DNA of 40,364 nt from Candidatus Eiseniibacteriota bacterium (GTDB taxonomy: Bacteria > Eisenbacteria > RBG-16-71-46 > JABDJR01 > JAWXBZ01): the NCBI GenBank assembly GCA_034440375.1, contig JAWXBZ010000152.1, positions 1-40,364 of the forward strand, written 5' to 3'. This document shows, piece after piece, positions 13,767 through 32,979 of the stretch (position 1 is its first letter; the number at the start of each line of letters is the position of its first letter). Both the position numbers and the translations under genes were made by a program. The notes below the pieces were generated by a model. It worked only from the letters and a program-made list of their open reading frames with translations. It ran no database searches and had not been told where the DNA came from.

Positions 13767-13803
13767 TTTCTCAAATTGGGACACAATTTCTAGAATCTGG
13801 ACA
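13767..13803. repeat. Tandem 17-bp imperfect palindromes (candidate upstream activating sequences)
   Basis: TTTCTCAAATTGGGACA (13767-13783) and TTTCTAGAATCTGGACA (13787-13803) are 13/17 identical with a 20-bp period. The second overlaps the activator's stop codon. Confidence 0.55.
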
Positions 13804-15145
13804 AGTGATGATTCCAGCGTTTCAATTTATTGTAAAGCGAGCTCCGGGGAATCCCGAGGCGTCGTGCGGCACTTTCAACCCGGCCACCCTCCTCCAGCAG
13901 CACCTGCTCCACATACCGTTTCTCCATTGCTTCCAGGGTCAGGTCGCCGGCCTCGGCCAGCACGACCCGCGCCTCGGGGAGTGGGTTGAACGGAATGTCC
14001 TTGCGGGCGAGCTGGCCCTCGCCGGCCAGGAGCACCGCCCGCTCGAGCACGTTGCGCAGCTCGCGGATGTTTCCCGGCCAGGCGTACTGACGCAGGGCGT
14101 CCACGGCATCCGGGGCGAGTTCCATGGCAGGGCGGCCACTCTCCCGGGCGAAACCATCGAGGAACTGCCGGGCCAGGATCGGGATGTCCTCCTGACGATC
14201 GCGCAGGGCCGGAACGGTGAGGGGAATGGCGTTGATCCGGTAGTACAGATCGTCCCGGAAGCGCCCCTCCTGGACCGCGCGCGCCAGATCCTGGTGGGTG
14301 GCCGCAATGAGTCGGATATCGACCGAACGATCCTTCACATCGCCCAGGCGACGGAACCGTTTCTCCTCCAGAACTTTCAACAGTTTCGGCTGGAGGTCAC
14401 GGTCGACATCCCCGATCTCGTCCAGGAAGACGCTGCCCCGGTCGGCCACCTCGAGCAACCCTTTCTTCGCGGCGATGGCGCCGGTGAACGATCCCCGTTC
14501 GTGGCCGAACAGTTCGCTCTCCAGAAATTCGCGCGACAGCCCGGCGCAGTTCAGATCGACAAACGCCTCGTCGCGCCGTGGACCACTCTCGTGGAGCCAT
14601 CGGGCCAGAACCCCCTTGCCGACGCCTGTTTCTCCGAGGATCAGGATCGGGCTGTCGGAAGTCAGCATGCGGCCGGCCTGATCCCTCAAGCTCTCGATGA
14701 TCCGACTCTCGCCGGCAAACGGATCTATGGGAGGATGACGGGTGGCGTTGGATCCGGCCACCTCGCGGCGCACGCGGCGATGCCGGTCGATGGCGCGCTG
14801 AATCAGAACATGAAGGGCCGGCAGCTGGACCGGCTTCGTCAGGAACTGATCCGCTCCCTGCTGGATGGCTGTCACCGCCAGGTCGATGGTCCCGTGGCCG
14901 GTCAGTATGAGTATCGGGACATCGCTGTCGATGGCCTTGAGACGGGGGAGAAGTTCGAGTGCGTTACCGTCCGGGAGCCGGTAATCGAGGACGACGACGT
15001 CCGGACGTGCGGTGCGGAAAACCTCCACGGCCATCCCGGCCGTCTCGGCCTCGAGCACCTCGTAACCCTGGATCTCCAGGTACTCCCGAACCGCCGCGCG
15101 TGCGGCCGGATCGTCATCAACCAGCTGGATGCGATGTCGAGACAT
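13790..15145 (-). CDS. sigma54-dependent response regulator (NtrC family; REC-AAA+-Fis HTH)
   Basis: REC 'LVDDD...VLDYRLPDGN...LTGHG...FLTKP', Walker A 'GETGVGK', 'ESELFGHERGSFTGA', Walker B 'FLDEIG', 'WPGNIREL', HTH 'AARRLGIPRSSLYNKLK'. Confidence 0.95.
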   Translation of the reverse strand: MSRHRIQLVDDDPAARAAVREYLEIQGYEVLEAETAGMAVEVFRTARPDVVVLDYRLPDGNALELLPRLKAIDSDVPILILTGHGTIDLAVTAIQQGADQFLTKPVQLPALHVLIQRAIDRHRRVRREVAGSNATRHPPIDPFAGESRIIESLRDQAGRMLTSDSPILILGETGVGKGVLARWLHESGPRRDEAFVDLNCAGLSREFLESELFGHERGSFTGAIAAKKGLLEVADRGSVFLDEIGDVDRDLQPKLLKVLEEKRFRRLGDVKDRSVDIRLIAATHQDLARAVQEGRFRDDLYYRINAIPLTVPALRDRQEDIPILARQFLDGFARESGRPAMELAPDAVDALRQYAWPGNIRELRNVLERAVLLAGEGQLARKDIPFNPLPEARVVLAEAGDLTLEAMEKRYVEQVLLEEGGRVESAARRLGIPRSSLYNKLKRWNHHLSRF

Positions 15146-17063
15146 GCGCTCCTTCCATGATCAGTTCGCCGGCGGCCACGGCGGCGGGGGACGTTGGGAA
15201 CCAGAGGAGAACCTTTGCCCCCCCCTCGGGCCGATTGCCGGCCTCGATCTGTCCGCCGTGCAGCTCGACGATGCGCCGAACAATGGAGAGGCCGAGCCCG
15301 GTTCCACCGTAGCGCTCACTGACGAATGGCTCAAAGATACGGCTGATCGGACCGGGATTGAAACCCGGACCCGAGTCATCCACGTGAGCCGTGACGCCGT
15401 CACGCCCATCCCTCGCCGCGGGGACTGCGCCGACAACCACCCGCCCTCCGGCCGGTGAGTGTTGAACAGCGTTCTCGATCAGGTTTTGAAAGACCTGGAG
15501 AATCATGTGTCCGTCGAGCAGAAATCGCGGCAGGTCCTCCGGCACCCGGTTCTCGATCACGACGCCGAGATCGCGCAGCGGTGCCGGCAGGAGTTCAATG
15601 GCCCGCTCGACGCACTCGTGGAGCGAGGTCAGCTCCAGATCGATACGGGGCGGCTTCCCGTAGTCGAGCAGCTGATTCATCAACCGGGAGAGGCGTACGA
15701 CCGATCCGCGCAGGGCACCCAGGTAGGACTGATACTCGGGCCTGGCGCCAAAGCGGGCTTCGAAGGCATCGAGGGATGCCGAAATGGTGAACAGCGGGTT
15801 GCGAACCTCGTGGGCCACGCCGCCGACAAGGCCGCCGATGGCCGACATCGCTTCGCTTTGGGCGAGCATGGCAAGAAGCCGATTCCGTTCCGCCTCGGAT
15901 TCCAGGCGGTCGGTAACATCGATTGAGCTGCCGACAATTTCGGTGGGTTGGCCGCCCGGACCCGACAGGACACGCAGTTCAATCGAAAGGGAGCGAAGGC
16001 GGCCGTCCCGATGTCGGAATCGAAGGACATCGCCTGTGTGTCCGGTGACGAGCAATTGCTCGCGCCAGCCGCGGTGACTTTCCAGATCCTCCTCGGCAAG
16101 GAGATGTTTCCAGAGATGTGGGTCCGCAAGGAATCGGCCCGATTCAAAGCCAAGCTGGTCGACCACGTTGGAACTGAGGAAGGTGGCCTCGAACGGGATC
16201 TCCGGACGGAAACTGAACAGGACGGCCGGGCTGGTCGACAGGAGGCGATCAACGCGCTGGAGCGATTCCTCGATGGCCTGTTCGGCGCGACGGGATTTCG
16301 TGACGTCCCGAAAGCTCCAGACCCGTCCCACAATCCGCTCACCGATCCTCTGCGGCCTGGAATAGCGTTCCACGATGCGTCCGTCCCGAAAGAGAAGGGT
16401 TTCGAAACTCTCGTCGGCCGGATGTTCGTACAACTCGCGAACACGATTCTGGAAGGCCACCGGGTCGACCAGCTGCGATAGGACAGCACCCACCAGGGCC
16501 TCGTCCCGGCGCTCGTGGAGCAGATCGGCGGAAATGCCCCAGATCTCCGCGAACCGGCCGTTGACGCTCGACACGCGCTGGTGCTGGTCCACAACGAGGA
16601 TCCCGTCCGCGGTTGACTCCAGGGTGGCCATCAAGAGGGAGAGCGACTCGGAGAGGTCGCGACGGTGTTCGATATCGCGCTGGCGGGCATTCGACAGGAT
16701 TTCCCGCTCGCGACTCGCCACCCAGGTACCGACCGCCCCGGCGGCGACCATGCCGAGGGCCGCGGGCAGATGGAGGTTCGAAAGCGGCTCGCCCCGGAGG
16801 AGTCCGGTGACGATCGTCACCACGACGCAGATCCCCGTCAGGACGACCGTGGTCATCGGCCCCGCGAGCATGGCCGCGAGGATCGGGACCAGCATCAGGA
16901 GCTGAATGTAGTGGTAGTCAGTTCCGGACAGGTAATCGATCAGGGCAACCAGCGGGATGATCGCGAGCAGGAGGATCGTCCGGGCACGACGATCCTCCGG
17001 GGGGGGAACGTCCGGATCGGCCGGTCGGTTGGGAAACGGGTGGAGCGCCGCTCGGTTGGTCAT
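15117..17063 (-). CDS. Membrane-anchored PAS-PAS sensor histidine kinase
   Basis: Four N-terminal TM segments, two PAS/PAC domains ('VWSFRDVT', 'GSSIDVT'), H-box 'GVAHEVRNPL', N-box 'NLIENAVQH', 'DSGPG', 'FEPF', 'GTGLGL'. ATG at 17063; the ORF-track extension to 17810 is antisense to the MglA gene. Overlaps the cognate regulator. Confidence 0.92.
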   Translation of the reverse strand: MTNRAALHPFPNRPADPDVPPPEDRRARTILLLAIIPLVALIDYLSGTDYHYIQLLMLVPILAAMLAGPMTTVVLTGICVVVTIVTGLLRGEPLSNLHLPAALGMVAAGAVGTWVASREREILSNARQRDIEHRRDLSESLSLLMATLESTADGILVVDQHQRVSSVNGRFAEIWGISADLLHERRDEALVGAVLSQLVDPVAFQNRVRELYEHPADESFETLLFRDGRIVERYSRPQRIGERIVGRVWSFRDVTKSRRAEQAIEESLQRVDRLLSTSPAVLFSFRPEIPFEATFLSSNVVDQLGFESGRFLADPHLWKHLLAEEDLESHRGWREQLLVTGHTGDVLRFRHRDGRLRSLSIELRVLSGPGGQPTEIVGSSIDVTDRLESEAERNRLLAMLAQSEAMSAIGGLVGGVAHEVRNPLFTISASLDAFEARFGARPEYQSYLGALRGSVVRLSRLMNQLLDYGKPPRIDLELTSLHECVERAIELLPAPLRDLGVVIENRVPEDLPRFLLDGHMILQVFQNLIENAVQHSPAGGRVVVGAVPAARDGRDGVTAHVDDSGPGFNPGPISRIFEPFVSERYGGTGLGLSIVRRIVELHGGQIEAGNRPEGGAKVLLWFPTSPAAVAAGELIMEGAHVSTSHPAG

Positions 17064-17121
17064 TGGCTGATTTGCTTCGGCCGGCCGCGCCCCCATCCGG
17101 GGCCGCGGCAGGGTCGATCGG

Positions 17122-17130
17122 AGTCTACCA
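17122..17130 (-). promoter_or_regulatory. Candidate extended -10 (TGgTAGACT) for the kinase/regulator operon
   Basis: TGn-TAnnnT match about 58 nt upstream of ATG 17063. Confidence 0.35.
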
Positions 17131-17243
17131 ACCAGCCTCGGACCCTGTCGAGATTCCCCTAAACCGGGAGCGACATGGGGTCGATACCTCCTGAACTGGA
17201 CATTAACGATCTCGGAATCACCCTCTCGGGAGGTCAATCTTTC

Positions 17244-18515
17244 ATGGTGGTCGTGAGCTATTCCGGCAAGGAAATCAACGCCAAGCTGGTCTATTACGGT
17301 CCGGGCCTTTGCGGCAAGACCACCAACCTCGAGCATGTCTACGACAGTATTCCGTCGACTCATCGCGGGAAGATGGTTTCCATGAAGACCCGCACCGAAC
17401 GAACACTTTTCTTTGATTTCCTCCCGGTGGATCTGGGCGAGCTGGGCGGCTTCAAGACCCGATTCCTCCTGTATACCGTGCCGGGGCAGGTCTATTACAA
17501 CGCCACGCGAAAGCTCGTTTTGCGTGGCGTTGACGCCGTCGTTTTTGTGGCCGACTCCGCCCGGGGCAAGATGAACGAAAACCTCGAGAGTCTTGAGAAT
17601 CTCAAGGAAAATCTCCGTGAGTACGGCCTCGACCTCGCTGTGATGCCATGGGTCCTGCAGTTCAACAAGCGTGACCTTCCCGACACCTATACGATCGAGG
17701 AGATGAACCAGGCACTCAACCCGGGCGGCGTCCCTCACTTCGAGGCGGTGGCCACCAACGGCACCGGTGTATTCGATACGCTGAAGGGGGTCTCGCGACT
17801 CCTTCTCCAAAAGCTCTCGAAGGAAATCAAGCTGTCGCCGAAGGTGGCGGAAGCGCGGGCCGAGGACCAGAAGTCGGCCCCGGCTGATCCAAGGCGGCCC
17901 GAGGTCGGCGTGCGCGGCCCGGTGTCGGCTCCCGTGGCCGCATTAACTCCAAGACCGACGACGGCACCGGTCTCCACCACGCCGGGCGTTCGCGTCTGGT
18001 CATCGCCGCCCGCCGCGCGTCCCCCCGCGGTTTCGGCCGTCCCGGCCCCGGCCGCCGTCGCCCCGAGTTCCTTCGAAGCCGGCGCGGCCACCGCCGCGTC
18101 ATCTGGCACCCCCGAGAAAGCGGGCTTCACGCGCAAGCTGGCTCAAATTTTTGGATTCAGAAAGAAGGACGAGGACGCCTTCGACATGTCGTCGCCGGCA
18201 AAGGCGAGGGTGGAGCCACCGGCCGCCGTTTCGGCTCCCCCGCTCGCCGCATCCTCCCCGCCTCGCGCGGCCGTGGTGACCAACGGTGCCTCCACCCGGA
18301 TTTCGCGGGTCGATCCAGTGCCCACCCGGGAGAGCGAAACCACCGCGAGCCGGACCTCGCCGTCCATAATCGAGAAGCGAATCACAGTTCCGGTGTCGCT
18401 GGAGCTGACGCCCGAGGAGATCCAGTCCGGATCACGCCTCAGGCTTGTCCTGGATATCGACCTGACGACGATGACGGCGACGGTCGAACGGGAAAGACGA
18501 ACCGGCACCCGCTGA
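17244..18515 (+). CDS. mglA: MglA-family small Ras-like GTPase with long C-terminal extension
   Basis: 'KEINAKLVYYGPGLCGKTTNL' (G1), 'ERTLFFDFLP' (G2 with intrinsic Arg), 'LYTVPGQV' (G3), 'NKRDLP' (G4), 'EAVA' (G5), followed by about 230 extra residues. ATG 17244 follows GGAGG. This is a family-level call; it may be a paralogue rather than the canonical mglA. Confidence 0.92.
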   Translation: MVVVSYSGKEINAKLVYYGPGLCGKTTNLEHVYDSIPSTHRGKMVSMKTRTERTLFFDFLPVDLGELGGFKTRFLLYTVPGQVYYNATRKLVLRGVDAVVFVADSARGKMNENLESLENLKENLREYGLDLAVMPWVLQFNKRDLPDTYTIEEMNQALNPGGVPHFEAVATNGTGVFDTLKGVSRLLLQKLSKEIKLSPKVAEARAEDQKSAPADPRRPEVGVRGPVSAPVAALTPRPTTAPVSTTPGVRVWSSPPAARPPAVSAVPAPAAVAPSSFEAGAATAASSGTPEKAGFTRKLAQIFGFRKKDEDAFDMSSPAKARVEPPAAVSAPPLAASSPPRAAVVTNGASTRISRVDPVPTRESETTASRTSPSIIEKRITVPVSLELTPEEIQSGSRLRLVLDIDLTTMTATVERERRTGTR

Positions 18516-18557
18516 TTCCGTGATCCCGGGGAGGGAGGCTTTCCTGTCCACCCGGGG

Positions 18558-18586
18558 TTGACGGTGGTGGGGGGCTTCTCTACCGT
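18558..18586 (+). promoter_or_regulatory. sigma70-type promoter for uppP (near-leaderless)
   Basis: TTGACG-N17-TACCGT; ATG 18596 follows 9 nt after the -10 box, with no SD. Confidence 0.6.
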
Positions 18587-18595
18587 GCGGCGCCT

Positions 18596-19420
18596 ATGTC
18601 GCCGACCACCGGTTTCCTGCTCGGGCTCATCCAGGGACTGACTGAATTCCTTCCGGTGTCGTCTTCCGGGCATCTGGTCCTGGCCGAGCATCTCCTCGGG
18701 CTCCGGAACGGCACCGCAGTTTTCCGGGTCGTGCTGCACGCGGCCACGCTGCTGGCAACCGTCATCGCCCTACGGACGGAGCTCGTTCGCATCCTGGCGT
18801 TCCTGGCATCCTCGATGGGAATCCGCTGGGTATCACTCCGCTCGGACGAATTGCGCGAGGGGCGCCGCCTGTTCCTGGCGATGGTGATAGGCACCATTCC
18901 GGTGGTTGTGGCCGGGTTGCTCTTCCGGGAGTCCATCGGGGAGTTGTATGAGAGTCCGCGCCTCGTCGGCTTCCTGCTGCTGCTTTCCGGGCTCGTTTTG
19001 ATCGCGACCCGGCTGGCGCCGAATGGCGGGGCCCAGCTCGACGCGACTTCGGCGCTGGCAATCGGGCTGGCACAGGCAGTTTCACTGCTGCCGGGCCTCT
19101 CGCGAACGGGCATGACCGTCGCGGCCGGTCTCCTGGCGGGAGTGAGACGGGAGCGCGTCGTTCGGTTCTCGTTTTTGCTCTCGCTCCCTGCGGTGGTCGG
19201 TGCGTCAATCCTTGAGCTCAATCGGGAGGTGTTGCCGGGGGGGACGCCGATACCCGCGCTGACACTGGTCGTCGCGTTCCTCACGGCCCTCGTCAGTGGC
19301 CTCCTGGCCATCCAGGTCATGTTGCGGGTGGTGACATCCGGACGACTGACGCTGTTTGGCCTTTACTGCATCGCGATGGGGGTCGCGGCGCTCGTGCTGT
19401 TGCCGAACGCCTCGCGCTAA
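18596..19420 (+). CDS. uppP: Undecaprenyl-diphosphate phosphatase (BacA family)
   Basis: 'LGLIQGLTEFLPVSSSGHL', 'LHAATLLA', 'IGLAQAVSLLPGLSRTGMT', 'FSFLLSLPA'. Confidence 0.95.
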   Translation: MSPTTGFLLGLIQGLTEFLPVSSSGHLVLAEHLLGLRNGTAVFRVVLHAATLLATVIALRTELVRILAFLASSMGIRWVSLRSDELREGRRLFLAMVIGTIPVVVAGLLFRESIGELYESPRLVGFLLLLSGLVLIATRLAPNGGAQLDATSALAIGLAQAVSLLPGLSRTGMTVAAGLLAGVRRERVVRFSFLLSLPAVVGASILELNREVLPGGTPIPALTLVVAFLTALVSGLLAIQVMLRVVTSGRLTLFGLYCIAMGVAALVLLPNASR

Positions 19421-19451
19421 CCTGGCGCGCCCGCATGGCAGCCCGCGGAAG

Positions 19452-19505
19452 CTAACGCTTGAGCCACCAGAAAAAATCAAACCCCAGCACCAGGAACGGA
19501 AGCAT
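19452..19505 (-). CDS. Putative 17-aa hydrophobic micropeptide MLPFLVLGFDFFWWLKR
   Basis: ATG 19505 to TAG 19452, preceded by TGAGGAGG-GACC, downstream of a sigma54-type promoter in an otherwise empty 306-bp gap between convergent genes. Too short for the ORF track. Confidence 0.5.
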   Translation of the reverse strand: MLPFLVLGFDFFWWLKR

Positions 19506-19583
19506 GGTCCCTCCTCAGTTCGGAATGGCCGCCGGGCGGGATTGCCGGCCCTTGCCGGCTCCCATACCCGGTGGGGATGGGAA

Positions 19584-19600
19584 TGCATAAGCCGTTCCAA
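19584..19600 (-). promoter_or_regulatory. Candidate sigma54 (-24/-12) promoter
   Basis: Minus strand TTGGAACGGCTTATGCA gives an exact GG-N10-GC spacing (TGGAAC-N5-ATGCA). Confidence 0.6.
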
Positions 19601-19625
19601 CTGCCGGCTTGGAGAGGCATCAGTC

Positions 19626-19650
19626 TAACCTGTTGTTTGTTAACAGGTTA
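19626..19650. promoter_or_regulatory. Perfect 9-bp inverted repeat (IHF-like or regulator site)
   Basis: TAACCTGTT-gtttgtt-AACAGGTTA, an AT-rich island 25 bp upstream of the -24 element. Confidence 0.55.
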
Positions 19651-19690
19651 TGAAGAGTGACGCAAGGTACTCGCGCGCAGCTGGCGGCGT

Positions 19691-19720
19691 GACTTGATCT
19701 CAGCCGGCTGAAAACCGACC
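19691..19720. promoter_or_regulatory. Adjacent 15-bp imperfect palindromes (candidate enhancer sites)
   Basis: GACTTGATCTCAGCC and GGCTGAAAACCGACC both resemble GGCTGA-N3-TCAGCC, about 120-150 bp upstream of the predicted start site. Confidence 0.35.
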
Positions 19721-19726
19721 AGCTGC

Positions 19727-22150
19727 CTAATAGAATCGAGCCACCACCAGCGTGACATCGTCGTCCGACACCGTGCCGTCGGGCGGTTGTGCGTTGGCCA
19801 TGATCGTGGCCTTGATTTGATCGGCGGAGGCGCCGGGCGATCGCCGGACCATGTCGACGAGATGATGGCGATCAGTCAGGGCTTCCTCGGGAATGCGGGC
19901 ATCCACCAGCCCATCCGAGAAGACGAGCAGTACATCTCCGGGCTGAACGCGAACCCGTCCCGATTCATAGGTGGCGCCCGGAATGACGCCGAGGATGATG
20001 CCCCCCTCCTCGAGGTCTTTGACCGTGCCGTCCGCGCCGATCAAGAGGGGCGGTTCTATCCCCGCATTGACGTAGGCCAGTTCACCGGCCACCGGGTCGA
20101 TGGCGGCGTAGAAAAAACAGACAAACCGATCCGGTTCGTTGATCTCCAGCACGCGTCGATTCAGCGCGGCCATGAGCGCGGCCGGCTCGATATCGGTCTC
20201 GGCCAGGGCCCGAAAGCTGGCCTGGACGCTGGCCATCAGGATGGCTGCCGGAATGCCCTTGCCGGAAACGTCCGAAACGGCCACGCCCAGCCGCCCGTCG
20301 GATAGACGCAGAAAGTCGTGAGCATCGCCGCCGACGGCCTCGCCCGGGAGTGTGACGCCGGCCAGTTCAACCAGTGGGGAGAGAGGCGGTTCGTCGGGGA
20401 GCAGGTGGCGCTGAATGCCGCGGGCCACCTCGAGTTCGCCCTGCAGCCGCTCCCGTTCATGCTCGTCTTCATTGCGCCGGGCCTGGGCCAGCGCCTCGGA
20501 TGCCGATCGTGAGATCCGCCGGAGGACCGCCAGTTCGCGGCTGTCAAGGCCGCCAGCCTCACGGGCCAGTTCGAACACGGCCACGGCCTGGAGCGCATGA
20601 CCATCCCGGATCGGGACAAAGAGTTCCCATCCACACTCGGCAAGTCGTTCGGCCACGACGGCCTTGAGCTCGGATGGGGCTCGAAACAGGATATCCGCCC
20701 GGGTGGCCGGCCGATCAATCTGCTCGAGGACTTCCGCAAGCGGTGACGCCAGAAATGCCGGGGTCGGGACGCCGTTCACCTTTCCATTTCTGGAAAGGTG
20801 GAGAATCGACGAACGGGCCGCTCCCAGACGTTGGTCCAGCTCGAGGACGAGGGCCTCGGTCAGGCGCGTCGAATCAAGGAAGCCGCTGATCCGACCGGAC
20901 AGTTCCTCCAATCGCCGCCGCCGCGAGAGATCCGCGCGAAAGAGGGTGCGATCGACAAACGCCTGGGCAACGTGACGGGTGCCCGAGAAAAGGAACGCCG
21001 CCAGAAGCAGGCCAAGTGCGGCCACGACCGGGTGCCCTCGCGCCGGATCGAGCCAGGGGCCGAGCCAGGTGACAGCGGCCAGCCATATCGAAGCCAGGAC
21101 CGTGGTGACGAGAAAGGCCACGGCGCCGCGTCGGAGGAGAAGTCGAATGTCGAAGATCCGGTGGCGAACGATGGCGTACATCCAGCACAGGGGAAGGAAC
21201 GCCACCGCGAGCACGGCGAACTGCTCGCCGGGAATGACCGGCAGACGCGTCAGGTTTCGAAGGATCAAGAGCAGCGTGATCGGGGTGAGTCCCACGATGC
21301 CGCCCCACAGGACCACGCGAAGTCGGAGAGACTCGGCTCGATCTCGTGTCCGGGCCAGCGTGAGAAGCAACCGGAACAGCGCACCGATCAGGCAGGAGAC
21401 GATGACGAGCAATGCCGCCATCGAGACCACCTGCTCGGCACTTTCGGAAACAGGCAGCGGGAGCTGGAGGCCGATCGCGGCGAGGGCAAGAAGCATGGAG
21501 ATGATCCAGGCCGTCAGGACGAAAGGCCTGGCTGCTGCCGAAAGCCGCCCGACGGGGAGACGAACAACGAATTCCACCAGCGCCGCTGCGAGTGTCAATC
21601 CGGCCAGATTGGAGAGCAGCGGATCGAGCGCTGCCAGCCACGTGGGTGATGGGGGGAGCGGTGGCCTCAGGATCAGGGCCAGCGCCAGGCCAATGAACAG
21701 AAAGGCACGACTCATGCCGCCGGGCCGCAGGTGCCAGGTGAGATAGCCGGTGCCGAGGCAGATCAGGGCCACCAGGAGCGACAGCCACCGCCGCAGATTC
21801 TCCCCGAGCGGCGGCGCGATCAACTCGAACGATACGACGCGGGCCGGCGATCCGGCCGGGGGTGTGACGAGCAGGCCGGCGAGGGTGCCCCGGGGGAGAG
21901 TCGAGATTTCGGCTGGCTGACACTCTTCAATCCGCACGCCGAGCGAATCGCCCGGACGATGCACGAAGACGCGTTGAATCCTATCGTCGACCGCAAGGCC
22001 GGCGCGCGCGGCAGGGCTGCCGGGGTCGACCGCGGCGACCTGGTCCGCCCGCATGGCGAAACCGAGGTACGGTCGGCGGGTCAGATCCGCGGCGCCGGCC
22101 AGGACGAGGGCCGCCGTGAGGGCGGCCAGAAGCGGAGCAAGGATGCGCAT
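19727..22150 (-). CDS. Membrane PP2C/SpoIIE-family serine phosphatase with N-terminal PDZ and degenerate GAF-like region
   Basis: PDZ 'VAAVDPGSPAARAGL.VDDRI', about 9 further TM helices with 'YAIVRHRIFDI', coiled coil 'ELEVARGIQRHLLP', PP2C metal motifs 'VGGD', 'DVSGKG', 'FSDGL', 'DDVT'. Start ATG 22150 or GTG 22153. Confidence 0.9.
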   Translation of the reverse strand: MRILAPLLAALTAALVLAGAADLTRRPYLGFAMRADQVAAVDPGSPAARAGLAVDDRIQRVFVHRPGDSLGVRIEECQPAEISTLPRGTLAGLLVTPPAGSPARVVSFELIAPPLGENLRRWLSLLVALICLGTGYLTWHLRPGGMSRAFLFIGLALALILRPPLPPSPTWLAALDPLLSNLAGLTLAAALVEFVVRLPVGRLSAAARPFVLTAWIISMLLALAAIGLQLPLPVSESAEQVVSMAALLVIVSCLIGALFRLLLTLARTRDRAESLRLRVVLWGGIVGLTPITLLLILRNLTRLPVIPGEQFAVLAVAFLPLCWMYAIVRHRIFDIRLLLRRGAVAFLVTTVLASIWLAAVTWLGPWLDPARGHPVVAALGLLLAAFLFSGTRHVAQAFVDRTLFRADLSRRRRLEELSGRISGFLDSTRLTEALVLELDQRLGAARSSILHLSRNGKVNGVPTPAFLASPLAEVLEQIDRPATRADILFRAPSELKAVVAERLAECGWELFVPIRDGHALQAVAVFELAREAGGLDSRELAVLRRISRSASEALAQARRNEDEHERERLQGELEVARGIQRHLLPDEPPLSPLVELAGVTLPGEAVGGDAHDFLRLSDGRLGVAVSDVSGKGIPAAILMASVQASFRALAETDIEPAALMAALNRRVLEINEPDRFVCFFYAAIDPVAGELAYVNAGIEPPLLIGADGTVKDLEEGGIILGVIPGATYESGRVRVQPGDVLLVFSDGLVDARIPEEALTDRHHLVDMVRRSPGASADQIKATIMANAQPPDGTVSDDDVTLVVARFY

Positions 22151-22175: not shown

Positions 22176-23765
22176 GTGACCACCTTCGGCAAGTTCCCGA
22201 AACGCGCCGTTTCAAACGTAACCCCGGGTGGGCACCGGAAGGGAGACCCACAATTGGTCCAGGGGCGAATCGAGCCGTTCCGTACGTCCCGGATGGCCTG
22301 GGTTTTCTACGGCATTCTTGCGATGGCTGTCCTGCTCAGGGCGATCGTGGCACTCCAATTCTACCGCTACTTCATCGACGACGCCTCCATATTCATGCGT
22401 TTCGTCGAGAATTTCGTGGCCGGTCACGGATTGGTTTTCAATCCCGGAGAACGTGTCCTCGGCTTTACCTCGCCCCTCTTCACGCTCGTCCTGGCAGGCC
22501 TCAAGTCGGCCCTGCCATCGGTCGGAATCGGCGCGATCATCAGCGCCCTCAATTTCACGCTCTTCACCATGACGGGGGTTATCCTGGTCAGGCTGACTCT
22601 GACTGACAAGCCGGTGTCATGGATGCTCCCACTGGTGTTCCTGTTCTATTTTCCCTTCGTCGACGCCAGTTTGAACGGCATGGAAACGACACTCATGCTG
22701 GCCACGCTTGTCGGAACCCTCTACCTGCTGCAGCGGGAGCGCCGGGATCTGGCGGTGGTGGTGGCCGGGTTCGCCGCGCTCACCCGCCCGGAGGGCGTTC
22801 TCTTTTTCGGCCTTGTCCTGGCTTATCTCATCTTCCTGAAGAAGGGTCCATTTCCCGTCAAGGGCTTCCTCATCGCGTCGCTCCTGGGCCTGGCCTGGGC
22901 GGGGGCGGCAAGTTCCTACTACGGCACGTTTGTCCCGCAATCGATGGTAGCCAAGTCCTCCCATGCCTGGCATGGCCTCCGAGAAGTCCCGAACTCTCCC
23001 TATTCCATCCATATCTTCCTGTCACTGGCACTCACCGATACGCTTTACCAGGGGCTTTCGCAGCACGTGAGGCTTCTGATTCAGGTCGTGGCCGGGCTTC
23101 TCACTCTTGGTTTTGCCCTGGGTTTCCGGCGGTTCCTCCGCGAACGGTCGCCGCTCGTCCTGGCGCCGATTTTCTACGTGGTCATTCTGCTCCTTTACAT
23201 CATTGGCAACCCGGTTGATCTGGCCAGCTGGCACACGATTCCGCCTTCGGTGGCTTTTTTCATTGCCCTGTTCGGGGGGCTTGAGGAGGTTCTGAGCCGG
23301 GGGAATGCGCGGTGGCTCCAGCGGTTCGTGCTGGCCGCAATTTTTCCGATACTGATCGCTTCGGTGCTCTGGGGATTGCCGCGAAGGGCCAGGACCATCA
23401 ACGATGTCCAGGGAGCACAGCGACACATCGTGACCTACGTGAGGGAGCACGTACCCGCTGCCACCTCCGTAGCGACGGGGCACATCGGACTGATTGGCCA
23501 CGAGTCGGGGCTCCGCATCGTTGATCTCGGGGCTCTCGTGACTCCGGCGGTCATGAAGGACCTCTACCTGAGCGACACGCTGGCGCGGGAAAAGCCGAGC
23601 GTGATCGTCCTGAATCCCACGATCCTGGAAGACGGATTGGATCCCATCTACCCGCACCCGTTTCGGACCCCGGCAGAAAAACAGGCGTTCCTCGAAACCT
23701 ACACACCGGTTTCAGAAGCCGGCCGGACGCACCTTTTCGTCGACCGGAAGCTCCTGGTTCAATAG
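22176..23765 (+). CDS. GT-C fold integral-membrane glycosyltransferase (AftB / arabinofuranosyltransferase-like)
   Basis: 'IDDASIFMRFVENFVAGHGLVFNPGERVLGFTSPLFTL', 'NGMET', 'LTRPEG', 'YYGTFVPQSMVAK', C-terminal 'IG.IG..SGLRIVDLGALVTP'. Start may be 22176, 22254 or 22293. Confidence 0.8.
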   Translation: MTTFGKFPKRAVSNVTPGGHRKGDPQLVQGRIEPFRTSRMAWVFYGILAMAVLLRAIVALQFYRYFIDDASIFMRFVENFVAGHGLVFNPGERVLGFTSPLFTLVLAGLKSALPSVGIGAIISALNFTLFTMTGVILVRLTLTDKPVSWMLPLVFLFYFPFVDASLNGMETTLMLATLVGTLYLLQRERRDLAVVVAGFAALTRPEGVLFFGLVLAYLIFLKKGPFPVKGFLIASLLGLAWAGAASSYYGTFVPQSMVAKSSHAWHGLREVPNSPYSIHIFLSLALTDTLYQGLSQHVRLLIQVVAGLLTLGFALGFRRFLRERSPLVLAPIFYVVILLLYIIGNPVDLASWHTIPPSVAFFIALFGGLEEVLSRGNARWLQRFVLAAIFPILIASVLWGLPRRARTINDVQGAQRHIVTYVREHVPAATSVATGHIGLIGHESGLRIVDLGALVTPAVMKDLYLSDTLAREKPSVIVLNPTILEDGLDPIYPHPFRTPAEKQAFLETYTPVSEAGRTHLFVDRKLLVQ

Positions 23766-23776
23766 CCGGACAGCCA

Positions 23777-25042
23777 TCAAACGGGGATGCCGGATGCCCG
23801 CGGGCCGGTCGCGGAGTTCCGACGCAATCGCCGGAGGACGACGGCATCAAGGAAGATGGCGGCCAGCATGATCAATCCGTAGTCGAACGGAAGCCGGTAG
23901 CGGATTCGGGGGAGAAACATGGAAAGGAAGAGACCATTTCCGACATAGAGGGCCAGGAGCAGAAGTTCGAAGTGACTTAAAGGAAACCGGAAACTGAGCG
24001 CAAGGCGAACGATAACCAGAAACAGGAGCGGCCAGTACGTGAAGAGCATGACCAGGTTTCTGGCGCGCGATTCCTCGCCGACCGTCATGATCCTGTTCGT
24101 GTAGTGAAACCAGTTCAGGAATTTGAGGCCGTAGAGCTTGAGGGTCCGGGCGGGGTTCTCCCGGATGTGCTCGAGGGCCCGATCCCGAAAGTAACGGTCG
24201 CGTTCGACCTCATTCATGTGGCGAAGAGCGTCGATGTCGCTGACATGACGCGAGGCATCGAAATAGCTGCTGTTCGGGTCGGTCGTCGATGAGTTTCCGT
24301 TCAGGAGGGTGACGCCGCCGTTCGTGCTCAACGGAATGAAGGCATGAAAGACTCCGTAATTGCGGACGGCCCATCCGCCCAGGAGAATCATGGTGGGGAG
24401 CAGGAGACAGAGAATGGCCATGGGGGCTCGCCGCCTTTCTCTCAGGATGAGCCAGGCAGCCGTGATCGCGAGCGTGAAGATGAAATTCGGCACCATCATG
24501 ATGGCCACCCCGAGGAAGAGCCCTGCCATCAGATAATTTCTTCTATTGATCCGGCCCGTTCCGGCCAGAATGGCGAGTGTGCCGAGAAGCAGCACGGCGC
24601 TGAGCGTCTGAGGATAGAAAGTGCCCGCCGTGTAGAACAAAACCGGATAACAGGCCACCAGCATGGCGCCGATCCAGGCAGCCCTTCTCGTTGCGGTCCG
24701 TTCCAGGACAACGAAAGTGAGACAGATCGAAGCGGCCAGCGCCAGAAAGCCCGCCAGCCGGAGCACGAAGAGGCCGGCTCCGGCGCTCAGGATCAGGGCC
24801 AGAAAGAACGGGTAACCCGGGGTCCGGACGGCGGTGGGATCCACCCCGTTGTAGCTGTACTTCCAGGTCGAAGCCAGATTTTGCGCCAGCTTTAGATAAT
24901 CGTGCTCGTCCGTGTATCGAACCTGGTTGCCAAGCGTGTGCGAATAAATGACGCCGGCCAGGAATACGAGAAGCGCAACCAGCAGGAGCCGGCCGGGAAG
25001 CGTTGGGCGCGGTGGCGTGGTCGCCCGAGGCGGATCAGTCAT
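23777..25042 (-). CDS. ArnT/PMT-like (GT39/GT83 type) membrane glycosyltransferase
   Basis: 'DEHDYLKLAQNL....YS..G..PTAVRTPGYPFFLA', 'WAVRNYGVFHAFIPLSTNGG..L.NGN', 'RYRLP'; multiple TM helices. Confidence 0.8.
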   Translation of the reverse strand: MTDPPRATTPPRPTLPGRLLLVALLVFLAGVIYSHTLGNQVRYTDEHDYLKLAQNLASTWKYSYNGVDPTAVRTPGYPFFLALILSAGAGLFVLRLAGFLALAASICLTFVVLERTATRRAAWIGAMLVACYPVLFYTAGTFYPQTLSAVLLLGTLAILAGTGRINRRNYLMAGLFLGVAIMMVPNFIFTLAITAAWLILRERRRAPMAILCLLLPTMILLGGWAVRNYGVFHAFIPLSTNGGVTLLNGNSSTTDPNSSYFDASRHVSDIDALRHMNEVERDRYFRDRALEHIRENPARTLKLYGLKFLNWFHYTNRIMTVGEESRARNLVMLFTYWPLLFLVIVRLALSFRFPLSHFELLLLALYVGNGLFLSMFLPRIRYRLPFDYGLIMLAAIFLDAVVLRRLRRNSATGPRASGIPV

Positions 25043-25062
25043 CGGTCCTGGGGGGCTTCGGA

Positions 25063-25803
25063 CTAGCGGCGAAAGCGATAGCGGAGAAGGGTGTAAATAC
25101 CTTCGAAGCCGTCCTTCCAGCCAATCTTCTTGCCTTCCTCCACCGAACGGGGATTGTAGGAGATCGGAACCTCGAGGATCTCGATGCCGTTTCTGGCCAC
25201 CTTGGCGGTGAACTCCGGGCAGAATTCAAATCGCTCGCACTCGAGCTCGAACTCGTCCAGCACATCGGCACGGAAGACCTTGTAACAGGTCGGCTCATCC
25301 GTCAGACGCAATCCATACAGCATGTTGGCCACCCAGGTGATGACCTGGCCGCCGACGAAAAAGAGCATGCTCGAGTGGCGGTCATGATCTTCTCCCTTGA
25401 ACCTCGAGCCGTACACGACCCGAACCTGTCCGCTCAAGATCGGACCCAGGAGCGATGGATATTCGTCCGGGGAATATTCAAGATCGGCGTCCTGAACGAT
25501 CAGGACATCCCCCGTGGCGTTTTCGAAACCGGTCCGGAGAGCCGCTCCCTTTCCGCGGTTCCGAGGATGTCTGATAACGCGGACTCCCGGCCCCTCGAGC
25601 TGTTTCAGAATTTCAGGAGTGCCATCGGAGGATCCATCATCGACCAGGATGAGTTCGCGCTCGAGCCCCAGCACGGGTGCCTCAAGCACCCGGCGGACGA
25701 TTTCGCGAACCGTCTTCGACTCGTTATAGACCGGGATGATGATGGAAACCCTCTTGAGCTCGGCCGAAACGGCGGGAAGAGGAGCAGGAGCGGGTGGGGT
25801 CAT
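25063..25803 (-). CDS. GT2 polyprenol-phosphate glycosyltransferase (DPM synthase / ArnC-like)
   Basis: 'SIIIPVYNE', 'VDDGSSDGT', 'NRGKGAALRTGF', 'QDADLEYSP', 'VYGSRF', 'TCYKVFR', 'EGKKIGWKDG'. ATG 25803. Confidence 0.92.
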   Translation of the reverse strand: MTPPAPAPLPAVSAELKRVSIIIPVYNESKTVREIVRRVLEAPVLGLERELILVDDGSSDGTPEILKQLEGPGVRVIRHPRNRGKGAALRTGFENATGDVLIVQDADLEYSPDEYPSLLGPILSGQVRVVYGSRFKGEDHDRHSSMLFFVGGQVITWVANMLYGLRLTDEPTCYKVFRADVLDEFELECERFEFCPEFTAKVARNGIEILEVPISYNPRSVEEGKKIGWKDGFEGIYTLLRYRFRR

Positions 25804-26136
25804 CCGTGGTTGTCCATTCCGATCCTGGCTCAGGATCAGCACACCTGAAAATGGCACCGAAATCGGCGCTGGAGTGCTGCTCCCAAGAAGGGGGCCTGAA
25901 GAAAACAACACAGCCAGCCGCAGATCGACCGACGTAAGTATCTTTATTGCTGGGCAATTATACCGATTGACTGGTGATGGTTCAAGATTTTTGTCACACG
26001 CGATGCGCGCAAAGCATTTTGGCTCCAGAACTTACGTGACATGGAGGCATGAGCTAACACGCAGCACCAGCGCAAGTGTAGAATGCGGCTTCGCGGGCCT
26101 CCCGGCCCGTTCGCCCCCTTGTCGGAGAAAAACCCA

Positions 26137-30330: not shown

Positions 30331-31557
<1,227 letters not shown>

Positions 31558-31560
31558 CGC

Positions 31561-32979
31561 ATGACCAATGAACTGCTGCCGCGCGGCGGACACGGGATTC
31601 TGATCATTGACGACGAGCGATCGCTCCGGTTCACGATTGGCGAGGCGCTTCGGGGCGAGGGATTTCGCGTCTTCGAGGCTCCGGGCGGCGAAAGCGGCCT
31701 TTTGGTCCTGCGTGAGGAAGAGATTGACCTGGTTCTCCTGGATCAGAAGCTCAAGGAATCGGGTGAGGACGGCCTGGAAATCCTGAAGCTGATCAAGCGG
31801 GAGTGGCCGGATACGGAGGTGGTCATGATGACCGCCTTCGGCCGCTTCGAATCAGCCGTCCAGGCCACCAAGCTCGGCTGTTACCAGTACCTGGGCAAGC
31901 CTTTCGAAATCGACCAGCTGGTCCTCATCCTCCGGGGTGCGCTGGAGAACCGGTCCCTTCGACGCGAGGTGGAGGTTCTGAAACGCGCCGAGAGCGGCCG
32001 CTACTCCCTGGAGCTGATCGAGGGAGCGAGCCCGGCCATGCGCCGGACCCTGGATGAACTGGACAAAATCGCCGCCGGCTCCACCACCGCACTCCTGCTG
32101 GGCGAGACCGGCGCCGGCAAGGAACTGCTGGCCCGCCGCATCCACGAGAAGAGCCCGCTGGCCGCCGGCCCATTTGTCGAAGTCAACTGCTCGGCCATCC
32201 CCGAGAACCTGCTCGAGAGCGAACTGTTCGGTTTCGAGAAGGGGGCCTTCACGGACGCCAGGGCCCGCAAGAAGGGGCTGTTCGAACTGGCGGACGGCGG
32301 CACCATCTTCCTGGACGAGATCGGCGAGATGTCACTCGGACTTCAGTCCAAGTTACTCCGGGTACTCGAAACGAAATCGTTCAAGCGGGTCGGGGGAACC
32401 ACGAATGTCGTGGTCAACGTCCGCTTCGTCGCCGCCACCAACCGCGATCTCAAGAAGGCGGTGGCCGAGGGGCATTTTCGCGAGGATCTCTACTATCGAT
32501 TGTCGGTCGTCCCGATTTCCATTCCGCCACTCCGCGATCGGGTCGATGACATCCCCTCGCTGATCGATCACTTCATTCAACACTTCAACCGGGAGCTCCG
32601 GCGAAACGTCACCGGCGCCGACGAACGGGCCATGACGTTGTTGACAGGCTATCACTGGCCGGGAAATGTGCGCGAACTCCGGAACGTGATCGAGCGCGCG
32701 TTGCTGCTCGGCAGCGGCACGATGATCGAGGCGGGCAGCCTGCCAACGGAGATGCTGGCCCGGGCCGCCACCGCGTCGACCGGTTCCCCCGACGCCGCCG
32801 GGCTGGCGGCGCTGCCGGCCGGGCCGGCCGGCGTCCTGACGCTGGCCGCCGCCGAGCGATACGCGGTCGTATCCGCCCTGGCTCGTTTCGAGGGCAACAA
32901 GACCCGGGCCTCGGAAGCACTCGGCATCAGCCGCCAGACTCTCCGCCAGAAGATGAAGGACTACGGGTTGGCCGAGTGA
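31561..32979 (+). CDS. sigma54-dependent response regulator (NtrC/AtoC family)
   Basis: REC 'IIDDE...LLDQKL...MTAFG...KPF', 'GETGAGKE', 'ESELFGFEKGAFTDA', 'FLDEIGEM', 'WPGNVREL', HTH 'GNKTRASEALGISRQTL'. Confidence 0.95.
   Translation: MTNELLPRGGHGILIIDDERSLRFTIGEALRGEGFRVFEAPGGESGLLVLREEEIDLVLLDQKLKESGEDGLEILKLIKREWPDTEVVMMTAFGRFESAVQATKLGCYQYLGKPFEIDQLVLILRGALENRSLRREVEVLKRAESGRYSLELIEGASPAMRRTLDELDKIAAGSTTALLLGETGAGKELLARRIHEKSPLAAGPFVEVNCSAIPENLLESELFGFEKGAFTDARARKKGLFELADGGTIFLDEIGEMSLGLQSKLLRVLETKSFKRVGGTTNVVVNVRFVAATNRDLKKAVAEGHFREDLYYRLSVVPISIPPLRDRVDDIPSLIDHFIQHFNRELRRNVTGADERAMTLLTGYHWPGNVRELRNVIERALLLGSGTMIEAGSLPTEMLARAATASTGSPDAAGLAALPAGPAGVLTLAAAERYAVVSALARFEGNKTRASEALGISRQTLRQKMKDYGLAE

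Follow-up and report, generated by a model that had tools for sequence, protein, structure and literature searches.

In this study we analysed a very short open reading frame (ORF) in the DNA of Candidatus Eiseniibacteriota bacterium, an organism known from metagenomes only. The window, by which we mean the whole stretch of DNA that was analysed, comprises 40,364 nucleotides (nt) of contig JAWXBZ010000152.1 (assembly GCA_034440375.1), from a genome with a G+C content of 63.8%. Two genes converge in it: uppP, and a gene for a membrane phosphatase of the PP2C/SpoIIE type, hereafter called PP2C. The 306 nt between them (19421-19726; uppP stop 19418-19420, PP2C stop TAG 19729-19727) carry a candidate micropeptide gene on the PP2C strand (Table 1). 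Its ATG lies at 19505 and its TAG at 19454-19452, so that 31 nt separate its stop from that of uppP. The same frame has a TGA three codons before the ATG, which excludes a longer ORF and fixes the predicted product at 17 amino acids (aa). A sequence-only reading of the window had described this gap before, and all the elements it named, read on the minus strand, were found again where it had placed them.

Table 1. Positions of the micropeptide gene, its putative control elements and the neighbouring genes in the window
Feature	Position	Strand	Basis or reading
Micropeptide gene, 17 codons + TAG, MLPFLVLGFDFFWWLKR	19452..19505	minus	sequence and orthologous ORFs in relatives
Shine-Dalgarno site GAGGAGG, 4 nt before ATG	19510..19516	minus	sequence
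Predicted 5' leader, ~68 nt if transcription starts near 19573	19506..19573	minus	two GC hairpins, the second pairing with the Shine-Dalgarno site
Sigma-54-type -24/-12 box TTGGAACGGCTTATGCA (GG-N10-GC)	19584..19600	minus	rarity, intergenic enrichment, similar boxes in relatives
Perfect AT-rich dyad TAACCTGTT-N7-AACAGGTTA	19626..19650	either	protein-binding site or RNA hairpin
Two GC-rich hairpins directly after the PP2C stop, including the imperfect palindromes described earlier	19660..19726	minus	fold
uppP/bacA (undecaprenyl-pyrophosphate phosphatase), convergent	18596..19420	plus	Pfam BacA/UppP 2.6e-67
PP2C/SpoIIE-type polytopic membrane phosphatase, 821 aa	19727..22192	minus	Pfam SpoIIE/PP2C 2.1e-48, NCBIfam, hydropathy, synteny
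PAS histidine kinase	15117-17810	minus	Pfam, NCBIfam
NtrC-type sigma-54 activator	13790-15145	minus	Pfam, NCBIfam

According to hydropathy and Pfam, the PP2C protein consists of an N-terminal transmembrane (TM) segment, a PDZ-like segment, about eight TM segments (137-402), a linker and the PP2C domain (590-821). This architecture recalls SpoIIE; by the NCBIfam model the protein is no SpoIIE equivalog (49 bits vs. a cut-off of 491). A terminator scan of the gap returned no terminator-like site, and a sigma-70 scan gave a single promoter-like site, on the plus strand at 19708-19736. No variants were listed for 19300-19850 in contigs of four DNA runs, one of which covered the region partially, with 3 differences.

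A phylum-wide family of Trp-Trp micropeptides

We found that the 17-codon ORF belongs to a family of unannotated peptides of 17-28 aa, in which a hydrophobic stretch is followed by D-[ILF]-[FL]-W-W-[LI]-[KR]-R-stop, each with a Shine-Dalgarno (SD) site ahead of it. A strict DNA pattern gave 109 matches in 106 of 206 genomes and in 61 of 83 genera of the window's phylum, whereas the same pattern read backwards as a control gave 4 matches in the 206 genomes. The gene is present in single copy in 103 of the 106 positive genomes; G013 (C17:34659-34685), G074 and G104 have two pattern matches each, possibly second copies of the peptide gene. With a looser pattern we obtained 23 matches in 22 genomes of a set of 41 relatives, against 10 for its backwards control. 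In this set G000 is the window's own genome, and G001, from a sister genus, is the only other genome from the same taxonomic family. A loose scan of the best 30 PP2C loci from the 41 genomes revealed a peptide ORF within 1.5 kb in 16 of them, and all 16 have a GGAGG-type SD before a start codon that gives 17-28 aa. Of 72 filter-passing ORFs, 63 likewise have an SD-like site ahead of the start that was chosen, a count to be read with the fact that the filter favoured starts having an SD. A search with a back-translated pattern in one genome per species added at least 119 stretches, of which at least 52 passed a filter that asked for a start codon and a small, hydrophobic ORF. Among the matches listed, the labels of the 31 accepted loci include Candidatus Eisenbacteria/Eiseniibacteriota (14), Fibrobacteraceae (2), Krumholzibacteriia (1) and Parcubacteria or Gammaproteobacteria (2). 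Three small low-GC assemblies (L088, L109 and L159; 38-47% G+C, 0.7-1.0 Mb) carry the form MEREI...LTLIDLFWWLRR directly after a receiver-only gene; L088 is labelled Parcubacteria and L109 Gammaproteobacteria.

Conservation of the peptide is a matter of amino acids, not of DNA. In G001, where UppP is 61% and PP2C 49% identical to the proteins of the window, the same convergent arrangement is found, and the PP2C strand reads ...GGAGGGACATGGA-ATG-MTELIVTILFFDIFWWIRR-stop. When the two gaps are aligned globally, the ORF end alone aligns, and a comparison of the gap with 40 relatives gave only matches of 23-37 nt at E >= 1.9e-4. Among 63 distinct loci the conserved residues are encoded with synonymous variety (Arg by CGN and AGR, Leu by CTN and TTG, Asp by GAC and GAT) and all three kinds of stop codon are used. 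Column entropy amounts to 1.03, 0.35 and 1.15 at codon positions 1, 2 and 3, the second position being by far the least variable. This signature indicates that selection acts on the micropeptide at the protein level, and from the comparison of genomes we hold it to be very probable that the ORF is a real protein-coding gene. One caution applies to the motif itself: the invariance of D, W and W is partly a product of construction, because the search patterns demanded these residues; the first, looser scan imposed no Asp and yet recovered it. The hidden gene for a 17-aa aromatic micropeptide, which the sequence-only reading had proposed, is borne out by this phylum-wide conservation: SD, ATG, length, stop and synonymous changes all recur in the relatives. 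Paralogous short ORFs, for which it had suggested a search, were sought in the window's own genome by blastn and tblastn; none was found, nor any second copy of the gap.

A Pfam-A scan of 8 of the 57 aligned members, namely those of at least 20 aa, which places the 17-aa peptide of the window outside the scan, gave 0 hits at E <= 10. The same eight members gave a single line in NCBIfam (PsbT, E 0.16, 11.7 bits with a cut-off of 55). When ten family members were looked up by exact sequence in a collection of 15 billion proteins, eight were absent and the other two were singletons without a name. Gene callers overlook proteins under 30 aa.

The putative promoter and other cis elements

The micropeptide had been predicted to be the product of a sigma-54-driven transcription unit. 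In the putative promoter box TTGGAACGGCTTATGCA the GG (19598-19597) and the GC (19586-19585) are exactly 10 nt apart. Canonical sigma-54 promoters, for example glnAp2 and pspA, follow TGGCAC-N5-TTGCW. The window's box shares with them the 10-nt spacing of GG and GC, the T before GG, the A after GC and an AT-rich tract directly upstream. We scored sites against TGGCACG-N4-TTGCW with GG-N10-GC required. The box obtains 18.5, a score equalled or exceeded at only 108 of the 7,927,362 strand positions of the genome (~0.003 per 220 nt). By a crude GC3-based gene mask, 36% of the sites in its score bin (22/61) are intergenic, compared with a background of 19-20% at scores of 16-17, which is a ~1.8-fold enrichment; among sites scoring 19 or more the intergenic share is 52-57%. 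Other evidence aside, roughly half of the intergenic sites at the score of this box would by this measure be real promoters. TGGAAC variants recur among such intergenic sites.

Across the peptide family, boxes scoring at least 17.5 are found on the coding strand in 19 of 62 upstream regions and on the reverse strand in 0 of 62, where the G000 background would lead one to expect ~1.5. These boxes end 64-243 nt before the start codon, a near-perfect example being TGGCACCCGGATTGCT in G020; in G001 the box TGGAATGGAATATGCA stands in the same place as in the window and ends 150 nt before the start codon. The machinery is present too. The window's genome has rpoN (Sigma54_DBD at C93, E 3.9e-64), as do 40 of the 41 genomes, and 19 Sigma54_activat matches, marking bacterial enhancer-binding proteins, two of them within the window; the genomes have 19-35 such matches each. 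On the same strand, 4-5 kb beyond, lie the genes of a PAS kinase and an NtrC-type activator; G001 shares this arrangement, whereas the more distant G013, G020 and G039 do not.

Several observations weigh against this promoter assignment. The scoring weights come from a consensus, and the box of the window departs from the canonical form at two positions (A for C at -23 and A for T at -15). The boxes of the window and of G001 are identical at 13 of 16 positions, and a best match of at least 13 also occurred in 14 of 40 shuffles; because shuffles match it, we do not count this identity as homology. In 43 of the 62 members there is no good sigma-54-type box. A different bipartite motif, TCAAG-N15/16-CCGA[TA], is present on the forward strand of 23 of 62 family loci and on the reverse strand of none (examples are L021, L026, L027, L095 and L125), and in three members the GG-N10-GC box sits inside it.

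The bipartite motif resembles a promoter that an unidentified sigma factor of the phylum would read. In G000, G012, G024, G030 and G036 its strict form, CTCAAG-N14/15-GCCGAT, was counted 7-15 times each and the backwards control 0-2 times. The motif is not present in the gap of the window, and the type of promoter seems to differ among lineages, as judged from these upstream regions. For the window's genome we regard it as likely that the peptide gene is transcribed from the sigma-54 box, with an inferred start near 19573. What stands of the predicted sigma-54 unit is thus a rare box, a one-sided strand distribution and the presence of rpoN and 19 enhancer-binding proteins; conservation in the relatives extends to ORF and SD, and to the box in 19 of 62 members only. 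A candidate for its activator, as one of the 19 enhancer-binding proteins, is the NtrC-type regulator encoded 4 kb away.

Around this regulator we made two further observations. The 40-kb window holds two pairs of histidine kinase and NtrC-type activator, at 13790-17810 and 30331-32979. The 897-aa kinase ORF of the first pair (15117-17810, minus) overlaps by ~640 nt (17175-17810) with a 446-aa plus-strand ORF of weak GTPase similarity (E 4e-4), so that the two assigned starts cannot both be right.

The sequence-only reading had also assigned the palindromes and the dyad to an enhancer and a bend site. Both elements are present, and the end of the dyad lies 25 nt upstream of the sigma-54-type box. 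Perfect 9-bp inverted repeats are expected 0.058 times per 306 nt in the window's genome, and the dyad is accordingly only mildly unusual. We picked 12 AT-rich sites of the similar form TGTT-N7-AACA from two lists. Three of them, all in G000, are followed at 25-40 nt by the start of a sigma-54-like box with a score of 18 or more, namely the dyad of the window, C45:39634 and C127:5137. At C45:39634-39720 the dyad lies 36-40 nt upstream of the box TGGCATCAGGTTTGCA (score 19.0), ahead of a receiver-domain gene, and at C127:5137-5215 the dyad lies 36-40 nt upstream of the box CGGCACGAATCATGCT (score 18.2). There is hence a hint that the dyad may be a promoter-associated protein site. The stretch 19730-19620, which includes the palindromes and the dyad, is predicted to fold into three hairpins (-44.1 kcal/mol, z-score -4.49, 0 of 200 shuffles as stable), and a strong GC hairpin stands at the same place after the PP2C stop in G001. 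Because they fold as stable hairpins, palindromes and dyad may mark the 3' end of the PP2C transcript, not activator sites. The hairpins after PP2C may well be such a 3' end structure, or else an activator site. As an assignment the enhancer and bend-site layout stays putative, the upstream palindromes being just as readily folded into hairpins at the 3' end of the PP2C mRNA (z -4.5). We know of no activator motif for this phylum. Downstream of the box, the predicted leader folds with -37.3 kcal/mol (z-score -3.14, 1 of 200 shuffles as stable), a value for a single sequence without covariation support.

Gene neighbourhood and candidate partners

Of the 22 genomes in the relatives set that carry the peptide, 18 have PP2C as the next gene upstream in the same orientation; in 3 others contig breaks or matches left unlisted obscure its position. 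The peptide occurs in every one of the 14 genomes that match the window's PP2C over its full length. Among the 19 genomes without the peptide, no listed PP2C match extends into the N-terminal 170 residues. As the genomes are related, these linkage counts overstate independence. In the wider pattern search the C-terminus of PP2C was found upstream in 21 of 31 loci with ~850 nt of upstream flank, among the matches listed. PP2C is divergent from the peptide gene and ~0.5 kb away in L103 and L106, and for two more of the ten flank-negative loci it lies 1.1 kb upstream in one and is split over contigs in the other; L105, which is the same locus as L015, has PP2C ~0.85 kb upstream, and for L109 and one other small assembly among the ten no SpoIIE domain was found. 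The arrangement also extends to metagenome-assembled genomes (MAGs) labelled Krumholzibacteriia and Fibrobacteraceae. The gap from PP2C to the peptide start measures 76-1100 nt and is never small, and with PP2C divergent in L103 and L106 this points to an independent promoter of the peptide gene at least in these lineages.

Could the peptide be a small membrane protein of a general kind, acting in stress, as part of some other complex or by perturbing the membrane, with PP2C beside it merely by inherited gene order? The three small assemblies in which the peptide follows a receiver-domain gene, and in which no SpoIIE domain was found, would fit such a role, as would the wide variation of the downstream neighbours. 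However, the adjacency to PP2C persists across families of the phylum and in MAGs labelled as other phyla despite a complete turnover of the intergenic DNA, it outlasts the inversion of PP2C, and the co-occurrence with the full-length PP2C orthologue (14/14 vs. 0/19) is not what a general role would lead one to expect. We therefore consider this explanation unlikely.

The second candidate partner is UppP. The peptide might act on the undecaprenyl-phosphate cycle in the manner of PmrR, the linkage to PP2C being secondary. In favour of this idea uppP is convergent within 1.2 kb in 7 of the 22 peptide-positive genomes and within 5 kb in 3 more, it lies downstream in ~20 of the pattern-search loci examined (among the matches listed), and L103 and L106 keep a convergent uppP despite their inverted PP2C. 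The GT-C and GT2 glycosyltransferases of the window, moreover, use polyprenol carriers. However, 12 of the 22 genomes keep the peptide beside PP2C although their uppP lies over 12 kb from it or on a different contig. The uppP gene was found in 40 of the 41 genomes, including all 19 without the peptide, and hence the two do not co-vary. An action on UppP is in our view quite improbable. Of the target candidates put forward from the sequence alone, the linkage favours PP2C, and uppP and the GT-C genes far less. As to the surroundings, genes for a GT-C-like (arabinofuranosyltransferase-like), an LA_3751-family and a GT2 glycosyltransferase (window 22176-25911) adjoin PP2C on one side, with uppP beyond on the other; together the glycosyltransferase genes and uppP form a neighbourhood of polyprenol-linked envelope glycosylation.

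To characterize the other side of the peptide gene we surveyed 23 loci without a nearby uppP and ran 56 of 88 candidate downstream ORFs against Pfam. A downstream gene was recognised in 15 of the 23 loci. Eleven of these genes are convergent (6 trpA, 3 AhpC/redoxin, 1 YkuD and 1 HNH) and four co-oriented (leuS, a receiver domain, PmbA/TldD and a C25 propeptide). From these gene orders the peptide gene is usually the last on its strand, with PP2C as its one constant neighbour. The trpA gene, encoding the tryptophan synthase alpha subunit, thus faces the gene of a Trp-Trp peptide in convergent orientation in L021, L026, L080, L090, L091 and L110; this adjacency is probably synteny inherited within one family.

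The downstream genes bear on two readings in which the transcript matters more than the peptide. In the first of them the effector would be the RNA itself, either a small RNA or an antisense transcript into the 3' end of uppP, and the ORF would be incidental or a second function. The stops of ORF and uppP are only 31 nt apart with no canonical terminator found, and the leader is more structured than its shuffles (z -3.1). However, Rfam gave 7 matches for 18500-20500, none better than E 1.2 and all far under the gathering scores, outside the ORF the gap shows no conservation even with the sister genus, whereas the amino-acid sequence does, and the downstream gene differs by lineage (trpA, AhpC, leuS and others). 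We found no evidence for the dual-function RNA or uppP antisense transcript suggested earlier, and we judge an RNA effector very unlikely. In the second the ORF would be a tryptophan-sensing leader peptide or attenuator like trpL, for which two invariant adjacent Trp codons and six trpA neighbours might be cited. However, the gene that follows runs towards the peptide gene in the 7 uppP cases, as do 11 of the 15 downstream genes recognised at the other loci, all 6 trpA genes among them, and the whole C-terminal motif is conserved beyond the Trp codons. As the peptide gene is usually the last on its strand, with no co-oriented regulated gene directly downstream here and in most lineages, we rejected this role, and its chance of being correct is minimal. 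The same low standing must be given to a chance ORF with a chance motif match in a spacer: GC-rich DNA abounds in short ORFs with SD-like stretches of purines, and an inverted repeat like the dyad may arise at the frequency given above, but 109 matches against 4 in the control, the syntenic placement and the synonymous substitution refute it. Two further candidates were rejected, a type I toxin-antitoxin system (no paralogue, one copy in 103 of 106 genomes, no Rfam match) and a precursor of a ribosomally synthesized and post-translationally modified peptide (no conserved modifying enzyme nearby).

A proposed modulator of a membrane phosphatase

The family peptides are made up of ~9-20 apolar residues, the invariant Asp, an apolar pair, Trp-Trp, Leu or Ile and two terminal basic residues. 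Positively charged residues of membrane proteins tend to stay inside (the positive-inside rule) and Trp prefers the membrane interface. Judged by these preferences, the C-terminus should be at the cytoplasmic face, with the Asp sunk into the bilayer by one or two helical turns. In a mini-helix, a single acidic residue usually points to pairing with another protein. Since the lone Asp suggests a partner and PP2C is the only conserved candidate, we propose that the peptide might be a small membrane modulator of PP2C.

Such a modulator could work as follows. The micropeptide gene would be transcribed separately, from the sigma-54 promoter, and if so the peptide would be made only when an enhancer-binding protein is active. 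It would insert as a short hydrophobic helix with a buried Asp, a Trp-Trp collar and a basic Lys/Arg-Arg end, dock in the membrane domain of PP2C and tune the phosphatase activity, as MgrB does for PhoQ. In this way the peptide would join a two-component/sigma-54 signal to a PP2C signalling pathway. Taken as a whole, the explanation of a separately transcribed membrane micropeptide gene that modulates the neighbouring PP2C sensor phosphatase appears to us somewhat better than an even prospect. Docking in the PP2C membrane domain, with its effect on activity, is the more tentative part, and we would place it a little short of even. It might further be possible that a peptide of ~20 residues serves as a switchable PP2C subunit by means of its Asp and Trp-Trp collar, possibly mimicking the juxtamembrane segment, and rewires a two-component signal into PP2C-type envelope stress; in this full form the idea is speculative and rather unlikely.

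Other observations count against the proposed partnership. It is drawn from gene order and co-occurrence among related genomes, and in G014 the listed PP2C orthologue lies 4.7 kb from the peptide gene. No SpoIIE domain was found in L088, L109 and L159, assemblies whose completeness is not established, although they carry the peptide, which speaks against an obligate partnership. The peptide of the window has 15 apolar positions, which is short for a membrane span. A charged partner of the Asp was looked for on the side of PP2C, in a 16-row alignment, three rows of which are in the wrong frame. It contains no conserved basic residue within the predicted membrane helices; a nearly invariant Arg (R406) falls just past them, and we count this neither for nor against the partnership. 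A juxtamembrane motif of PP2C, YAIVRHRIFDIRLLLRRG (21125-21178, residues 339-356), is conserved in the orthologues. The PP2C segment IFDIRLLLRR resembles the C-terminal consensus FDIFWWLRR of the peptide, which may be mimicry or coincidence.

Small membrane proteins that tune membrane enzymes are already known, among them MgrB, SafA, PmrR, AcrZ and Prli42. MgrB (47 aa) and SafA bind and modulate the sensor kinase PhoQ in enterobacteria. The peptide described here resembles them as a very small single-helix membrane protein, for which we propose conditional transcription and binding to the membrane domain of a signalling enzyme. Unlike them it has no sequence relation (no Pfam or NCBIfam hit), a length of 17-28 aa, a putative promoter of sigma-54 type and, as its proposed partner, the PP2C of the adjacent gene instead of a histidine kinase, the interaction being proposed here from gene order. 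PmrR (29 aa) is a membrane peptide that inhibits LpxT, an enzyme using undecaprenyl pyrophosphate. It shares with our peptide the small size, the regulated expression and, through the convergent uppP, the closeness to undecaprenyl-pyrophosphate metabolism; however, the two are not homologous, uppP is linked to the peptide gene in only 7 of 22 genomes, and UppP/BacA belongs to a different enzyme family from LpxT. The Listeria miniprotein Prli42 tethers the stressosome to the membrane, upstream of the PP2C phosphatase RsbU, and is likewise a membrane miniprotein in a stress signalling pathway of the PP2C type. In contrast to the arrangement proposed here, where the phosphatase itself is membrane-bound, Prli42 acts on RsbR in a cytoplasmic stressosome; it comes from a different phylum and shows no homology. 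The type I toxins Ibs, ShoB and TisB, finally, are of 18-30 aa, multi-copy, patchy in distribution and paired with an antisense RNA. They are similar in size, in hydrophobicity and as unannotated intergenic ORFs, whereas our peptide has no paralogue, is usually single-copy, is syntenic across the phylum and keeps a strict C-terminal motif.

By the measure of profile searches and literature the family is new: no Pfam or NCBIfam profile matched the eight members scanned, and we found no paper on small proteins or sigma-54 in Eisenbacteria, nor on the motif strings of the family. Among the literature matches listed, judged by the listing and the openings of the abstracts, none joins small membrane proteins with PP2C or partner-switching. 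New as well is the combination of features, namely a length of 17-28 aa, the proposed PP2C partner, a sigma-54-type promoter in several lineages and the phylum-wide spread. To our knowledge a connection from two-component systems to PP2C via a micropeptide has not been described so far, and little is known about what regulates bacterial membrane phosphatases of the PP2C/SpoIIE type.

In conclusion, comparative genomics alone can validate an ORF of 17 codons, and it leads here to a micropeptide that roughly every second sampled species of an uncultured phylum retains. If the proposed function is true, a micropeptide dedicated to PP2C/SpoIIE-type membrane phosphatases would add a new mode of their control, and the gene would provide a clean case of a sigma-54-driven small protein.

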